In this document: one piece after another, positions 7,053 to 46,291 of the stretch
Numbering within the stretch: position 1 is the stretch's first letter
How the letters are laid out: each line of letters begins with the position of its first letter
IMG/VR virus record: IMGVR_UViG_2974506496_000001
Location: 160,001-224,000 of that record
From: a virus
Taxonomy: Duplodnaviria; Caudoviricetes
Strand: one strand, 5' to 3'
DNA: 64,000 bases
Made by a program: the position numbers and the translations under genes
The notes under the pieces: model-generated
What the model was told of the DNA's origin: nothing
What the model saw: the letters and a program-made list of their open reading frames with translations, nothing else
Databases searched by the model: none

Positions 7053-7495
7053 AAAGGCTTGTCTTCGTTTGACGAAAGATCAAACACCGCCTTCCTATTT
7101 GGCCGGATGGAAGTAAAATAACCGGCCAGCCATTATACATCTGTAGGTCGCAGGTTCGATTCCTGTCGGGGTGAAACCCGTAGCTCAGTCGGTTAGAGCA
7201 GCAGAACAACTGCTTATGCTAAAAGCAATGATCTTTGGGATCATCAATGGTGTACTGTGAGCACCTTGAAATCACAGGTCTAAAGCTTAAAGCTATAACG
7301 TATAATGACTAAAGCTCTAAAGGTTTAAACTTATAACGTTAAAAAGATCTACACTCCCTGATGACTGTGTTCGTCGGGCTATAACGCTAAAACCTTTTAA
7401 ACAAATCCTGGGTATTCCTCCGCTGTGAGGATGGGTAATGTGGAGTGTGGTCTGCCACGTATCGCCGCCAGGCTGTCTTGCGGAGACAAGTCTTT
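7053..7495 (+). ncRNA. ~440-nt Y-RNA (YrlA)-like ncRNA with permuted tRNA domain and UAAAG-like repeats
   Basis: Terminal helix AAAGGCTTGTCTTCG (7053-7067) pairs with CGGAGACAAGTCTTT (7481-7495); GACGAAAG/CTGTC bulged helix; T arm, looped acceptor and D arm in that order at 7140-7205. Confidence 0.7.
7280..7402 (+). repeat. imperfect 6-9-nt tandem repeats with a TAAAG/TAACG core
   Basis: CTAAAG CTTAAAG CTATAACG TATAATG ACTAAAG CTCTAAAG GTTTAAAC TTATAACG TTAAAAAG, then three more units at 7379-7402. Confidence 0.7.
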
Positions 7496-7517
7496 CCCTT
7501 TTGCAATAGGTGACCTA

Positions 7518-7688
7518 ATGACAGGCACTGCCTTAATGATCATTGAGCAACCACAACTGGAATTCAATATCCCGTTGAGGTCGCCTTATCCTACCCTTCA
7601 TGACGTAAGGTTTTCTATGTTCCCTGTTATGGCTGAGCCTGAGAACGAAGGGTTTGAACAAGATTCAGAAACTGACGCATTACATTGA
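7518..7688 (+). CDS. small acidic hypothetical protein (56 aa)
   Basis: AGGTGA RBS before ATG 7518; the longer ORF-track start would overlap the ncRNA. Confidence 0.45.
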   Translation: MTGTALMIIEQPQLEFNIPLRSPYPTLHDVRFSMFPVMAEPENEGFEQDSETDALH

Positions 7689-7977
7689 GGAGATTCAATC
7701 GCGCAGGTTCTTAACCGACTAAAGCCAGGGTGACTTGTGTTATCTTGGTAACAGGTGAACGCGTCGTTACAGCGCATACGACTGAATGGGCCGATCCCCC
7801 CTTCGGAGTAATATTAGCCCAGATCCATTGCACACCAATAAGTCAATGGCTAGCCAGACACACAAAAAACTATTATGCTTCGACAGATGGTAGGTGCCTG
7901 ATTACTACAATTCGATTCGATACCTCAACTAAAAGGCGGACACAAGGGCCGTTATGAGTGAAGCACCAGGAAACTAT

Positions 7978-8030
7978 ACCTTGGTAAGGCCCCAGGCTTT
8001 TTATCCTTACCAAGGTTCTCTTTCTTTTAC
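7978..8030 (+). terminator. intrinsic terminator-like hairpin
   Basis: ACCTTGGTAAGG/CCTTACCAAGGT 12-bp stem followed by TCTCTTTCTTTT. Confidence 0.55.
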
Positions 8031-8106
8031 TACCTGATAATGGGTGGATGCCTTAGTCACCTTTCTTTCACAGAGGCAACAACCTAAGGCGTCTGCCCGC
8101 CCTATA

Positions 8107-8216
8107 ACCCGAGTCGTCTAGCGACAAGACACCGTCAGACCCATTTGGTAACAGCCTAACTTACCTGTTACCCAACCTATGACGGAAACAGGTGGTTCAA
8201 CTCCACCTCTTGGGTC
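8107..8216 (+). ncRNA. tRNA-Glu-like RNA with anticodon loop replaced by a ~44-nt hairpin insert
   Basis: ACCCGAG/CTTGGGT acceptor, TC-GTCT..AGAC D arm, CCGTC/GACGG stem, AAAC variable loop, AGGTGG-TTCAACT-CCACCT T arm. Confidence 0.7.
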
Positions 8217-8293
8217 TTAGGTATTGGCTTAGGCAAACTCCGTCGCGGCTTTACCCTCAATAGGCTGCGTTGCGTAAGTCAGTACCGTGCTGT

Positions 8294-8449
8294 GCGTCGT
8301 ACTCCCTGATGAGGCGCCCGACGTTAAAAGGCACGAAACGGGGACAGAGGATACTCCATCGGTGATTGCAATCAACCACGCTGGGGTTTATACAGGCACT
8401 TGAGAGACACGCTGGTTTCTCGTTGCCTGTCCCTTTGTCCCGTCGGAGT
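8294..8449 (+). ncRNA. type I hammerhead ribozyme with loop II pseudoknot
   Basis: Stem I ACTCC/GGAGT, core CTGATGA (8306-8312), GAAA (8335-8338), stem III ACGGGGACAGAGG/CCTTTGTCCCGT, GTC cleavage triplet ending 8444, GCGTCG (8294-8299) complementary to loop II CGACGT. Confidence 0.8.
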
Positions 8450-8956
8450 CCCTTGCGTTCCTGGAGGGATGACACCGCGTTAAGACTGATCCCCTTAACG
8501 AAGTTGCAATAGCCGGGGGTGTTTCTTGCAAAGGTTACTCACAGCAGACTGCCTCCGCCAATTGCGGATGGCTTAGGCCCTCAGTCCGTCAGGAAGTTGT
8601 CGTTGAATAAATGACAGCTGGACTAGGGTTGCATTATAACCCGGCAAATGTGCAGCCTGTTTTTTCTTCATGTGTACCTGAACCGGTTCAGGAGCCTACA
8701 GATGAGGGAACGACGGGAAGCATATTGCTACCGATCATTTGCTGTGTGACCGGGCCAAGGATGGCATATACCGGAACCAGTAGTCGTATTCAGCGCAGGT
8801 GCGCTTTCTCTTCCTTATCTTGTGGTTAAACCGCGCCTGTCTGGATCATACGTGCCGGGGTCACACCTGGCGCTTATGCCGTCTGAGTTGTATCCTTTTT
8901 TACTCCTACATTACGAAGCTGATATACCCATCAATTCAATTTAAAGGAGTTTAGTT

Positions 8957-9379
8957 ATGAAGAACGTTACTATTGCTATTGGTCGTAATCCGCTGTCCAA
9001 CCAGAAATGGATTCTGGATCAGATCGTGAGTCTGGTGAAGTCCGGCAAGTCCGACATCTTCATCGTCAATACTGACTCACGGGTTTCCACTGCGGTACTC
9101 AACGCCTTGAAAGAGTATACGAAGGATGATGCGGAATACACTCGCTTGGTTGCTGAGAACGGTGTCATGTTCCACACAACCGAGACCGAAGACCTGCAAA
9201 CGCTGGATGATGCTAAGATGAACAGCCGCTCGGCGATTCTGGCCAACATGCTGTTCAGCCTGCCATTGGTCAAACAGTGTCGTGATCTGGCGCGTCACCA
9301 CGTCCCGGTCTTTGTGAGTGCCACACCTGCCATGTCTGGTAAGGTGCCGGCTGCCGCCCATACCAAGTTCCTCGATTAA
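8957..9379 (+). CDS. hypothetical protein
   Basis: AAGGAG RBS; early promoter-like motif CCTACATTAC at 8905-8914. Confidence 0.75.
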   Translation: MKNVTIAIGRNPLSNQKWILDQIVSLVKSGKSDIFIVNTDSRVSTAVLNALKEYTKDDAEYTRLVAENGVMFHTTETEDLQTLDDAKMNSRSAILANMLFSLPLVKQCRDLARHHVPVFVSATPAMSGKVPAAAHTKFLD

Positions 9380-44320: not shown

Positions 44321-46291
44321 GTGATGCAAAGCTATCATTGGCGTGATCTGTTGTCGATGTCTGAGGAGCAGATTTGGCAACTTGATCCTGCAATCAACAA
44401 CCCAATCATTGAAGTGGTGGCAGAGGATGCCACCTTCAAGATTCCTGCCCGACAGGTTATCGGTAGCTGGTATTGCTGGCCGTTTCAAAAGCTCTATCGC
44501 AACATGGTGTTGTGTAAGCGTCATTTCATCACAGCGTTTCGTCTGTCGAACAAAACCATCCTGGGGATCATGACCAACGGTTATCGTGATTATGATGCGA
44601 TGATGAACGGCACTATCTTAGATGTCGTGGCATTAAACAGCTTGATTGCGAAAACGGCGAACCGCATTAACAATGCGTTTGTCACCAAGATCCCAGAGTA
44701 TGTCACGACCTCGGGCATGAAGCAGTATATTGAAATCGTGGATGACCCTGAGTTTAAAGCGATTCGTGATGCAATGGAACCTAACCAGAACTCGATTCGT
44801 GATGGTTATGATGCGTCACTCAAACTGCTGATGGACCCGAAGAAGTATGTCGGTAATCAGGTGGCGGAGTATGTGAAGCAAGGATCAGCATCAGCAGGCC
44901 AGGCATTACAATGTCTGGTGGTGCGTGGTTATCTGACTGACCATAACTCGCGTATCTTTGTTAAGCCGGTCATGGGTAACTATGTCGAAGGGCTGGGTAA
45001 GTTCTACGACTCGTTCGTGGAATCACGCTCAGCAACCAAAGCGGCGTTGTTTACCAAGAAACCCCTGGAAGACTCCGAATGGTTTAACCGTAAAATGCAG
45101 CTGGTTGCACAAGCGGTGCAGAAGATCCATCTGGGGGAGGATTGTGGGTCGACGATAACAGTGCCTATTGTTATGCGTCGTGGCTGGGCAAGTGCGATGG
45201 CCGGTACGTATTATCTGGATGATGATGGATCGTACAAAATGATCACGGAAGAGGACAAGCATCTGGAGAACCGGTTACTCAATATCCGCTCTCCGATGTA
45301 TTGTAATCATCCTGACCGTACCGGTATCTGTGAGCGGTGTTATGGGAAGTTAGCGGTATCCATTCCGTACTTCAATGTCGAAGGGAAAGTTGGGGATAAC
45401 CAGGTGATCGTGGGGCACGTCAGTGCAACGGAAATCGGTGAGGATCTCTCACAGAAGATGCTGTCAACCAAACACCTGGATACGTCCTCGACGGTAGATC
45501 CGTTTGCTATTCGTCGTGCCGATGCGTTGTATGTGAAACCAGGCTTGCGTGAAAACGCCATTCGCCTGAATCCACGTCTGCGTAATGAAAAGGTCACGAT
45601 GAAGGTATCTTTCGACAAAACTACCGCATTATCTGATATCGCAGTTGCCGAAAACTTAGATGAAGTAGCAACGCGTGTTTCCGGTTTCAATGAGATCGTG
45701 CTGGAGTTTGAGCGTGAAGATGGGGGTAAAGAGTCTATCCCAATCAACACCACCCAGGGTTCTCGTCAGGGTCAATTCACTGTCGACTTCCTGCGTTACT
45801 TGCAGCGCGTAAGCTGGACGAGTGCGGACAAAGATTATATCTCTATCCGTCTGGATCAATTTGAATATGATTGCGATGTGGTTGAATTGCCGTTAGTGCA
45901 TGAAGACATGATGGCGTATCAGAAACAGATTGAATCCTACATCCGTTTCAGTAAGGAATCAGCGAATTGGAAAAACAAGTTTGTCACGCCGGATGAAGTG
46001 GGTGTGGTACTGGATGAGTTCTTCTCGTTACTGCGTCAGCGTTTGGGTGTGAACATTGTTCATGCACAGATCATGCTGTATTCAGTGATGACCATGGACC
46101 CAGCCAAAGGCGACTATCGTCTTCCGCGGGCGTATGAACCACGGCAGTTCTCTTCCTATCACGAATGTATCGAGTACCGTTCTCTCTCGGTCCAGCTCGT
46201 GTATCAGGAACAGGCTGCGGTGATGCTGAAGCCGTCCACTTTCCTCAATGACAAACGACAACCGCACCCGATGGATGAAATCTTCAAATAA
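44321..46291 (+). CDS. non-virion RNAP beta-prime C-terminal subunit (phiKZ gp74-like)
   Basis: EDCGS, RSPMYC...ICERCYG Zn site, SQKMLSTKH. Confidence 0.85.
   Translation: MMQSYHWRDLLSMSEEQIWQLDPAINNPIIEVVAEDATFKIPARQVIGSWYCWPFQKLYRNMVLCKRHFITAFRLSNKTILGIMTNGYRDYDAMMNGTILDVVALNSLIAKTANRINNAFVTKIPEYVTTSGMKQYIEIVDDPEFKAIRDAMEPNQNSIRDGYDASLKLLMDPKKYVGNQVAEYVKQGSASAGQALQCLVVRGYLTDHNSRIFVKPVMGNYVEGLGKFYDSFVESRSATKAALFTKKPLEDSEWFNRKMQLVAQAVQKIHLGEDCGSTITVPIVMRRGWASAMAGTYYLDDDGSYKMITEEDKHLENRLLNIRSPMYCNHPDRTGICERCYGKLAVSIPYFNVEGKVGDNQVIVGHVSATEIGEDLSQKMLSTKHLDTSSTVDPFAIRRADALYVKPGLRENAIRLNPRLRNEKVTMKVSFDKTTALSDIAVAENLDEVATRVSGFNEIVLEFEREDGGKESIPINTTQGSRQGQFTVDFLRYLQRVSWTSADKDYISIRLDQFEYDCDVVELPLVHEDMMAYQKQIESYIRFSKESANWKNKFVTPDEVGVVLDEFFSLLRQRLGVNIVHAQIMLYSVMTMDPAKGDYRLPRAYEPRQFSSYHECIEYRSLSVQLVYQEQAAVMLKPSTFLNDKRQPHPMDEIFK

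Follow-up and report, generated by a model that had tools for sequence, protein, structure and literature searches.

The phage and its noncoding unit

The window, meaning the whole stretch of DNA that was analysed, is 64,000 nucleotides long and corresponds to bases 160,001-224,000 of a 271-kb virus record; positions below are those of the window unless stated otherwise. Over positions 7900-9000 it was 99.4-99.8% identical to the Erwinia phages Rebecca, MadMel, Deimos-Minion and Desertfox (Agricanvirus), and Erwinia phage AH06, also an Agricanvirus, showed 82% identity to it over the same positions. The taxonomy line of the Rebecca sequence record reads Agricanvirus ray. By this sequence similarity the window phage is an Agricanvirus, a RAY-like Erwinia jumbo phage. 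Phage RAY itself is a nucleus-forming chimallivirus (PMC10299810).

The ribozyme site lies within approximately 1,270 bp without an annotated gene, between the genes at 7425-7688 and 8957-9379. Frame-breaking indels of 1, 2, 4 and 5 nt were found between relatives across this region, and as these are not multiples of three, a conserved ORF on either strand is excluded. Most likely the region holds a noncoding unit of about 0.85 kb, consisting of a tRNA-shaped RNA, the ribozyme, a folded RNA of about 400 nt and a terminator, all on the + strand.

The tRNA-shaped RNA (8107-8216, + strand) has a 7-bp acceptor stem (ACCCGAG/CUUGGGU), a D arm (GUCU/AGAC) and a T arm (GGUGG-UUCAACU-CCACC), and its anticodon arm is longer by an 8-bp hairpin, the apical loop of which (CCUAACUUA) is conserved. 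Its stems covary in five phages. It was missed by default ARAGORN and by Rfam. A decoding tRNA with an intron was considered for 8107-8216 and rejected, as ARAGORN needs relaxed settings here and the anticodons disagree between relatives. A spacer hairpin with a conserved apical ACCCUCA (8222-8290, + strand) separates the tRNA-shaped RNA from the ribozyme, which occupies 8294-8449.

Downstream of the predicted cut lies a conserved and covarying multi-hairpin noncoding RNA of about 400 nt (8450-8853, + strand), in which about 55 nt at approximately 8505-8560 (AAGUUGCAAUAGCCGGGGGUGUUUCUUGCAAAGG...CAGCAGACUGCCUCCG) are nearly invariant. No Rfam family matched 8450-8853, and a search of the phage genome for its antisense targets returned chance 11-13-mers only. 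Group I intron, tmRNA and RNase P were rejected as the identity of this large RNA, since Rfam and ARAGORN gave no support to them.

A phage-type terminator follows (8854-8881, + strand), formed by a GC hairpin and then UUAUGCCG, and probably closes the noncoding unit at its 3′ end. The module of a hairpin plus TTATGCCG occurs about 27 times across the genome, at gene ends; a variant with TTATGAG was seen at 7948-7957. A promoter-like motif, CCTACATTAC followed by N5 and TGATAT (8905-8914, + strand), precedes the gene at 8957-9379. Because the terminator stands before this motif, the next gene's promoter most likely lies beyond the end of the noncoding unit. Nine exact copies of CCTACATTAC and three close variants were found, all on the + strand, where about 0.26 would be expected by chance, and most of the copies, not all, lie 35-75 nt upstream of start codons. 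The motif takes the form CCTACATTAC-N5-(T/G)GATA and often comes directly after the terminator module; a few copies have no nearby ATG or stand at the genome end. We also considered a switch for the gene at 8957, in which the freed 5′ GGAGU would act against an anti-Shine-Dalgarno ACUCCU (8902-8907). This was dropped, because ACUCCU lies in the spacer between terminator and promoter, upstream of the likely start of that mRNA.

Two further features were seen near the unit. Just upstream of it, at about 8033, a 172-aa ORF is present in near-identical and related phages (L005/L038 and AH06; 103-621 in L038, 3147-3665 in L002). It has a P-loop-like GPRQLGKT motif and gave no match in a Pfam search. 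Apart from the start codon and the last few codons it is missing from the window phage, a presence/absence polymorphism. At 7355-7366, about 940 nt upstream of the ribozyme, there is a 12-mer, ACTCCCTGATGA, that is the same as the stem I/core start of the hammerhead. This copy has neither GAAA nor matching stems and may be due to chance or be a relic.

The hammerhead fold and its relatives

The fold at 8294-8449 has type I topology, with an open stem I, stem II closed by an 11-nt loop and stem III closed by a two-hairpin branch. The core motifs and stems I and III described in the first-pass annotation were all present: CUGAUGA at 8306-8312 (C3 U4 G5 A6 U7 G8 A9), GAAA at 8335-8338 (G12 A13 A14 and A15.1) and GUC at 8442-8444 (G16.2 U16.1 C17), with predicted scission between C8444 and G8445. 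Stem I pairs ACUCC (8301-8305, positions 2.5-2.1) with GGAGU (8445-8449), the 5′ end of the predicted 3′ cleavage product. The pseudoknot proposed earlier was found as well. Its 5′ strand GCGUCG (8294-8299) pairs with CGACGU (8319-8324), the first six nucleotides of loop II (CGACGUUAAAA), through five Watson-Crick pairs and one G-U.

Stem II with its loop (8313-8334) is made of G8313-C8334, an opposed G8314.A8333, a bulged C8315 and GCC 8316-8318 paired with GGC 8330-8332. The base helix of stem III comprises 12 pairs (8338-8350 with 8432-8443, G8343 being bulged), its 3′ strand running on into the cleavage triplet (8432-8444), and the 81 nt inside it (8351-8431) fold into two hairpins. Hairpin P3a (8353-8387) carries a nearly invariant CAUCGGYGAUUG..AUCAACCACG. 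In P3b (8392-8430), ACAGGCA and UGCCUGU pair around GAGAGA/UUUCUC. The extra stem III hairpins had been noted before and are there, with the correction that ACAGGCA is at 8392-8398 and not at 8393-8399; UGCCUGU is at 8424-8430.

A descriptor that required the core, stems I-III and a position 17 (H17) other than G found a single site in the window, pseudoknot included. The same descriptor found no site in 300 first-order-Markov random 64-kb windows. The site was also the sole credible hammerhead in the whole 271-kb genome, and in each of four genomes checked there was one copy. A search of the genome for a second ribozyme able to excise a segment found none.

A comparison with the hammerhead models of Rfam had been proposed as a check, and it returned nothing. 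Rfam 15, applied at the gathering score to the window and to six loci, gave no hammerhead or other ribozyme match. At E<=10 (7600-9200 of the window, 12380-12530 of L004 and 1800-3050 of L041) no hammerhead was matched in either branched or minimal forms. A weak RAGATH-32 line (E=3) was dismissed. The models presumably miss these sequences because a bulged stem II and a loop II of 11 nt lie outside their experience. The failure is a limit of the peripheral elements of the models and the core is not at fault.

Six distinct versions besides that of the window were collected, giving a comparative set of seven sequences from approximately four lineages. The AH06 version was found by BLAST against named phages. 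L039, L040 and L041 are uncultivated relatives (67-77% identity) that were reached via homologues of the downstream gene, and L041 lies on a complete 287-kb genome. Together with AH06 these three are diverged syntenic relatives, all with the stem III branch. The remaining two, L004 and L035, were found by a pattern search built on the stem II/loop II block; they are unrelated phage contigs without other similarity to the window. The spacing from GAAA to the cleavage triplet is 103 nt in the window, 103-107 nt in the four branch-bearing relatives, 11 nt in L004 and 8 nt in L035. As stem III of L004 and L035 is plain and short, with a loop of 3-4 nt, the branch is read as a lineage-specific elaboration of an otherwise minimal ribozyme. 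A DNA contig, X17, is a further diverged relative in which the core is kept. BLAST of the core against named phages found Agricanvirus only, and looser pattern scans (one of viral contigs at fixed spacing and two of genome contigs) found only chance matches in coding DNA.

Every invariant core base was kept in all seven sequences, and only N7 and H17 vary. N7 is U or A (A in L039). H17 is C in three sequences, U in two and A in two, giving the triplets GUC, GUU and GUA, and is never G. The pseudoknot was 100% paired in the five relatives aligned; its closing pair (8299:8319) is G-C, U-A in AH06 and C-G in L004, and its outer pair G-U or A-U. Each pair of stem I occurs as two or three pair types, with A/U-rich pairs in L004 and L035, and pairs 3-6 of stem III each occur as three standard pair types. 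Stem II is invariant save for 10.2/11.2 and the bulged base, and therefore uninformative as a test of covariation; the stem II/loop II block is nearly identical even in the unrelated contigs L004 and L035. Stem II had been rightly described as imperfect, and this had been taken as the main weakness of the call. It is instead a trait of the family: G-C, then U-A in six of the seven sequences (G.A in the window phage), a 1-nt bulge and GCC/GGC.

To quantify pairing and covariation, the five long versions were aligned with MAFFT without reference to structure. The model of hammerhead plus pseudoknot had 94.5% of cells paired, as compared to 35-49% when the partners were slid by 1-3 columns. Compensatory change was seen at seven pairs, and none of 500 shuffles equalled the observed covariation score. 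P3a, which is missing from L004 and L035, had 92.9% of cells paired and two compensatory pairs. P3b has another sequence in AH06 and L039-L041 with pairing retained, as judged by eye where the alignment is poor. Motif, conservation, covariation, single copy, noncoding context and the terminator and promoter boundaries are direct observations. Although approximately four lineages make up a small sample, their pattern is the one expected under selection for an active hammerhead.

Proposed processing role and alternative readings

We consider it very probable that the RNA is a catalytically competent hammerhead. With slightly less confidence, we regard it as a genuine type I hammerhead with a 6-bp pseudoknot and an 81-nt stem III branch, which probably cuts itself between C8444 and G8445 and so splits a noncoding transcript of about 0.85 kb. 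The first-pass annotation had called a pseudoknotted type I hammerhead with a stem III insert of about 80 nt and a cut after C8444, and the conservation and covariation of the seven sequences support that call. Catalysis itself, the transcription of the whole stretch as one RNA and the purpose of the cut are what we infer. Among public reads, the only RNA-library contigs (two; 196 nt, 8198-8393, depth 3.8) end before the cut site at 8444 and are no proof of transcription.

Transcription of the + strand would give the tRNA-shaped RNA, then the spacer hairpin and then the ribozyme. The pseudoknot could form once loop II emerges and would hold stems I and II parallel. When stem III and the 3′ strand of stem I have been made, the RNA would fold co-transcriptionally and cut itself at C8444/G8445 by internal transesterification. 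As the ribozyme is present in single copy within the noncoding unit, the cut would yield two parts of the transcript. The upstream piece would keep the tRNA-shaped RNA, the spacer hairpin and the ribozyme and end in a 2′,3′-cyclic phosphate. The downstream piece would be a structured RNA of about 435 nt, starting with 5′-OH-GGAGU and ending at the terminator (8854-8881). Since stem I has only 5 bp, the two pieces should separate.

The subfamily occurs in three unrelated contexts: after a tRNA-shaped RNA, after true tRNAs or after a strong hairpin, and before a long structured RNA. In L004, a complete 54.6-kb phage, the ribozyme begins 1 nt past the CCA of a tRNA-Arg, downstream of a tRNA-Met, and in L035 it is placed after the strong hairpin. 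On the 3′ side of the hammerhead both have a conserved leader of about 230 nt and then an Amidoligase_2 gene. The position between a stable RNA element and a long structured RNA fits a role as a processing point or insulator, and we propose that its purpose is a protein-independent maturation or insulation of RNA modules. Within the shared leader, on the minus strand of both contigs (12243-12442 in L004, 556-784 in L035), lie CUGAGUGUGUGCUC and a UGNCGAAAGNCA hairpin that covaries.

The phage nucleus is thought to exclude most host proteins, host RNases possibly among them. It is a protein shell with selective protein import (PMC12908238). Processing of RNA without protein could suit a phage that transcribes within such a shell, which we offer as inference only. 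A more far-reaching and rather doubtful proposal places the hammerhead at the heart of RNA processing in a multi-domain noncoding operon (about 0.85 kb) of nucleus-forming jumbo phages that has not been described before. The operon would comprise tRNA-shaped RNA, spacer hairpin, branched hammerhead and folded RNA of about 400 nt and would mature its RNA without protein inside the phage nucleus, with the branch docking or regulating and the freed RNAs acting in the cytoplasm. There the released RNAs would have a role as a decoy or in export or repair.

Of the rival explanations, the one that survives best keeps a real hammerhead and makes its cleavage conditional or timed, with P3a binding a phage or host factor or a 5′ hairpin locking an inactive fold. 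The sequence of P3a is conserved far beyond what pairing needs, including nearly invariant unpaired bases, and the branch is dispensable for the core, as L004 and L035 are without it. For the 5′ hairpin, nearest-neighbour folding favours a structure in which CGUGCU (8286-8291) pairs with GGCACG (8330-8335), sequestering stem II and G12, and in which the pseudoknot helix turns into an ordinary hairpin. This fold was calculated at -68.7 kcal/mol, as compared to approximately -60 for the hammerhead, to which the nested fold contributes -52.6 and the pseudoknot about -7.3, a difference of about 9 kcal/mol in an energy model that omits the tertiary contacts stabilising the active fold. The UGCU/GGCA of the alternative helix is invariant in the five Agricanvirus-like sequences. 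However, the helix shows no compensatory change, one of its pairs is broken in L039-L041 and it is missing in L004. Because compensatory change does not maintain it, we take it as a possible gate and not as the selected fold. No partner or ligand was identified for such a gate, and overall we find gating unlikely.

Hammerhead cleavage leaves a 2′,3′-cyclic phosphate and a 5′-OH, and such ends are substrates of RtcB. The ends made by the ribozyme could then be joined by phage RtcB, through circularisation or trans-ligation and possibly with tRNA-like or Y-like RNAs. RtcB is encoded by the window phage, AH06 and the 287-kb relative (L041), and both a YrlA-like RNA (7142-7205) and the tRNA-shaped RNA lie near the ribozyme. 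A specific link to RtcB and the Y-like RNA, as suggested in the first-pass annotation, did not hold up. With one ribozyme per genome no second compatible end would be made, and no other self-cleaver family was found at E<=10. The RtcB gene is approximately 120 kb from the ribozyme (genome positions 44,575-45,723), the complete 54.6-kb phage with the same hammerhead subfamily encodes no RtcB, and Rsr/TROVE is not encoded. In RAY, moreover, RtcB is cytoplasmic and has been read as a tRNA ligase (PMC10299810). Taken together, the missing Rsr, the distant and cytoplasmic RtcB, the RtcB-less relative and the single ribozyme make a dedicated cleave-and-ligate circuit improbable.

It is less probable still that the hammerhead-shaped domain is a structural relic that serves as architecture of a larger RNA and does not cut or cuts too slowly. 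The G.A at 10.2/11.2, a large branch that could misfold and the missing Rfam score would suit a relic. However, the variation obeys the rules of activity, being restricted to N7 and H17 with H17 never G, even in otherwise unrelated phages, and compensatory changes preserve the pseudoknot, on which fast cleavage depends. A chance motif or a DNA-level element, such as a protein-binding site or opposite-strand coding, is effectively refuted: the minus strand allows an ORF of 72 aa (8257-8475), but this ORF is broken by 1- and 2-nt indels in comparison to AH06, the random windows gave no match, and the compensatory changes tolerate G-U in a way specific to the + strand RNA.

Comparison with known systems

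Pseudoknot-stabilised hammerheads of all three types, many of them in prophages or intergenic regions of phages, were described in 2011 (Perreault et al., PMC3088659). About 40% of natural hammerheads have a pseudoknot that joins stems I and II, and the prophage hammerheads sit between genes (PMC3088659). The ribozyme described here resembles the type I hammerheads of that study in its canonical core, open stem I, 6-bp loop II pseudoknot and intergenic position in a phage. It differs from them in the bulged stem II, whose 11-nt loop hardly varies in sequence (NGACGUUAAAA), and, in the Agricanvirus lineage, in a stem III that forms a three-way junction with an 81-nt branch. It does not flank genes in pairs or triples but is present as a single copy, and the noncoding RNA that surrounds it is long and belongs to a lytic jumbo phage that forms a nucleus.

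Hammerhead_1 (RF00163) and the other hammerhead models of Rfam have the same core and three-stem topology as the present ribozyme, which nevertheless falls outside their modelled diversity, both by gathering score and at E<=10. The mammalian Clec2 3′-UTR hammerhead is discontinuous, with a large insert in stem I that separates the enzyme and substrate strands. Both ribozymes have a core interrupted by a long peripheral insertion, but here the insertion is a compact, conserved branch that closes stem III. The ribozyme class is an already familiar one; what differs here are the near-fixed stem II/loop II, the branched stem III, the strict single copy, the noncoding unit of a jumbo phage and the invisibility to Rfam.

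To our knowledge, hammerheads number in the thousands in bacteria and phages, where their biological role is still unproven. In the present case the role can be tested, because there is a single conserved and covarying copy, a cultured and genetically studied group of RAY-like Erwinia phages and a purely noncoding unit whose neighbours and boundaries are defined. The effect of mutations in the core or the pseudoknot on RNA processing and on the fitness of the phage could therefore be read out directly. An entire phage subfamily escapes the current models of Rfam; its stem II is bulged, its loop II is long and one of its lineages has a branched stem III. The analysis also flags about 800 nt of conserved, structured and uncatalogued RNA in nucleus-forming phages, which bears on the question of how RNA is matured away from host enzymes in these phages.

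Theta (HDV-like) ribozymes adjoin phage tRNA genes (PMC10879173). Similarly, the hammerhead is a small self-cleaver directly downstream of a tRNA or tRNA-like RNA in Caudoviricetes, and in L004 the pseudoknot strand starts 1 nt past the CCA. The theta ribozymes are of a different class, cut at their own 5′ edge and trim the tRNA trailer, whereas in a type I hammerhead the cut falls on the 3′ side and the ribozyme would remain on the upstream RNA.

In common with the Rsr-YrlA-RtcB module for RNA repair of Salmonella and relatives (YrlA, RF02553), the window phage encodes RtcB and carries a tRNA mimic similar to YrlA, so the Y-like RNA of the first-pass annotation is real. Unlike in that module, there is no Rsr/TROVE gene (a TROVE search of the 271-kb genome gave no match) and RtcB is not adjacent; the hammerhead lies outside any described Rsr/RtcB module. 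The YrlA match at 7142-7205 scored 44.5 bits (E 8.5e-9), below the gathering score of 69, and covers only positions 23-87 of the 114 in the model, which correspond to the tRNA-like core, instead of the full length with the Ro-binding stem. In its context (approximately 7091-7260) this YrlA-like RNA begins with a T arm (GCAGG-UUCGAUU-CCUGU), followed by a closed hairpin that resembles an acceptor (CGGG-GUGAAA-CCCG) and then by a D arm (GCUC-AGUCGGUUA-GAGC).
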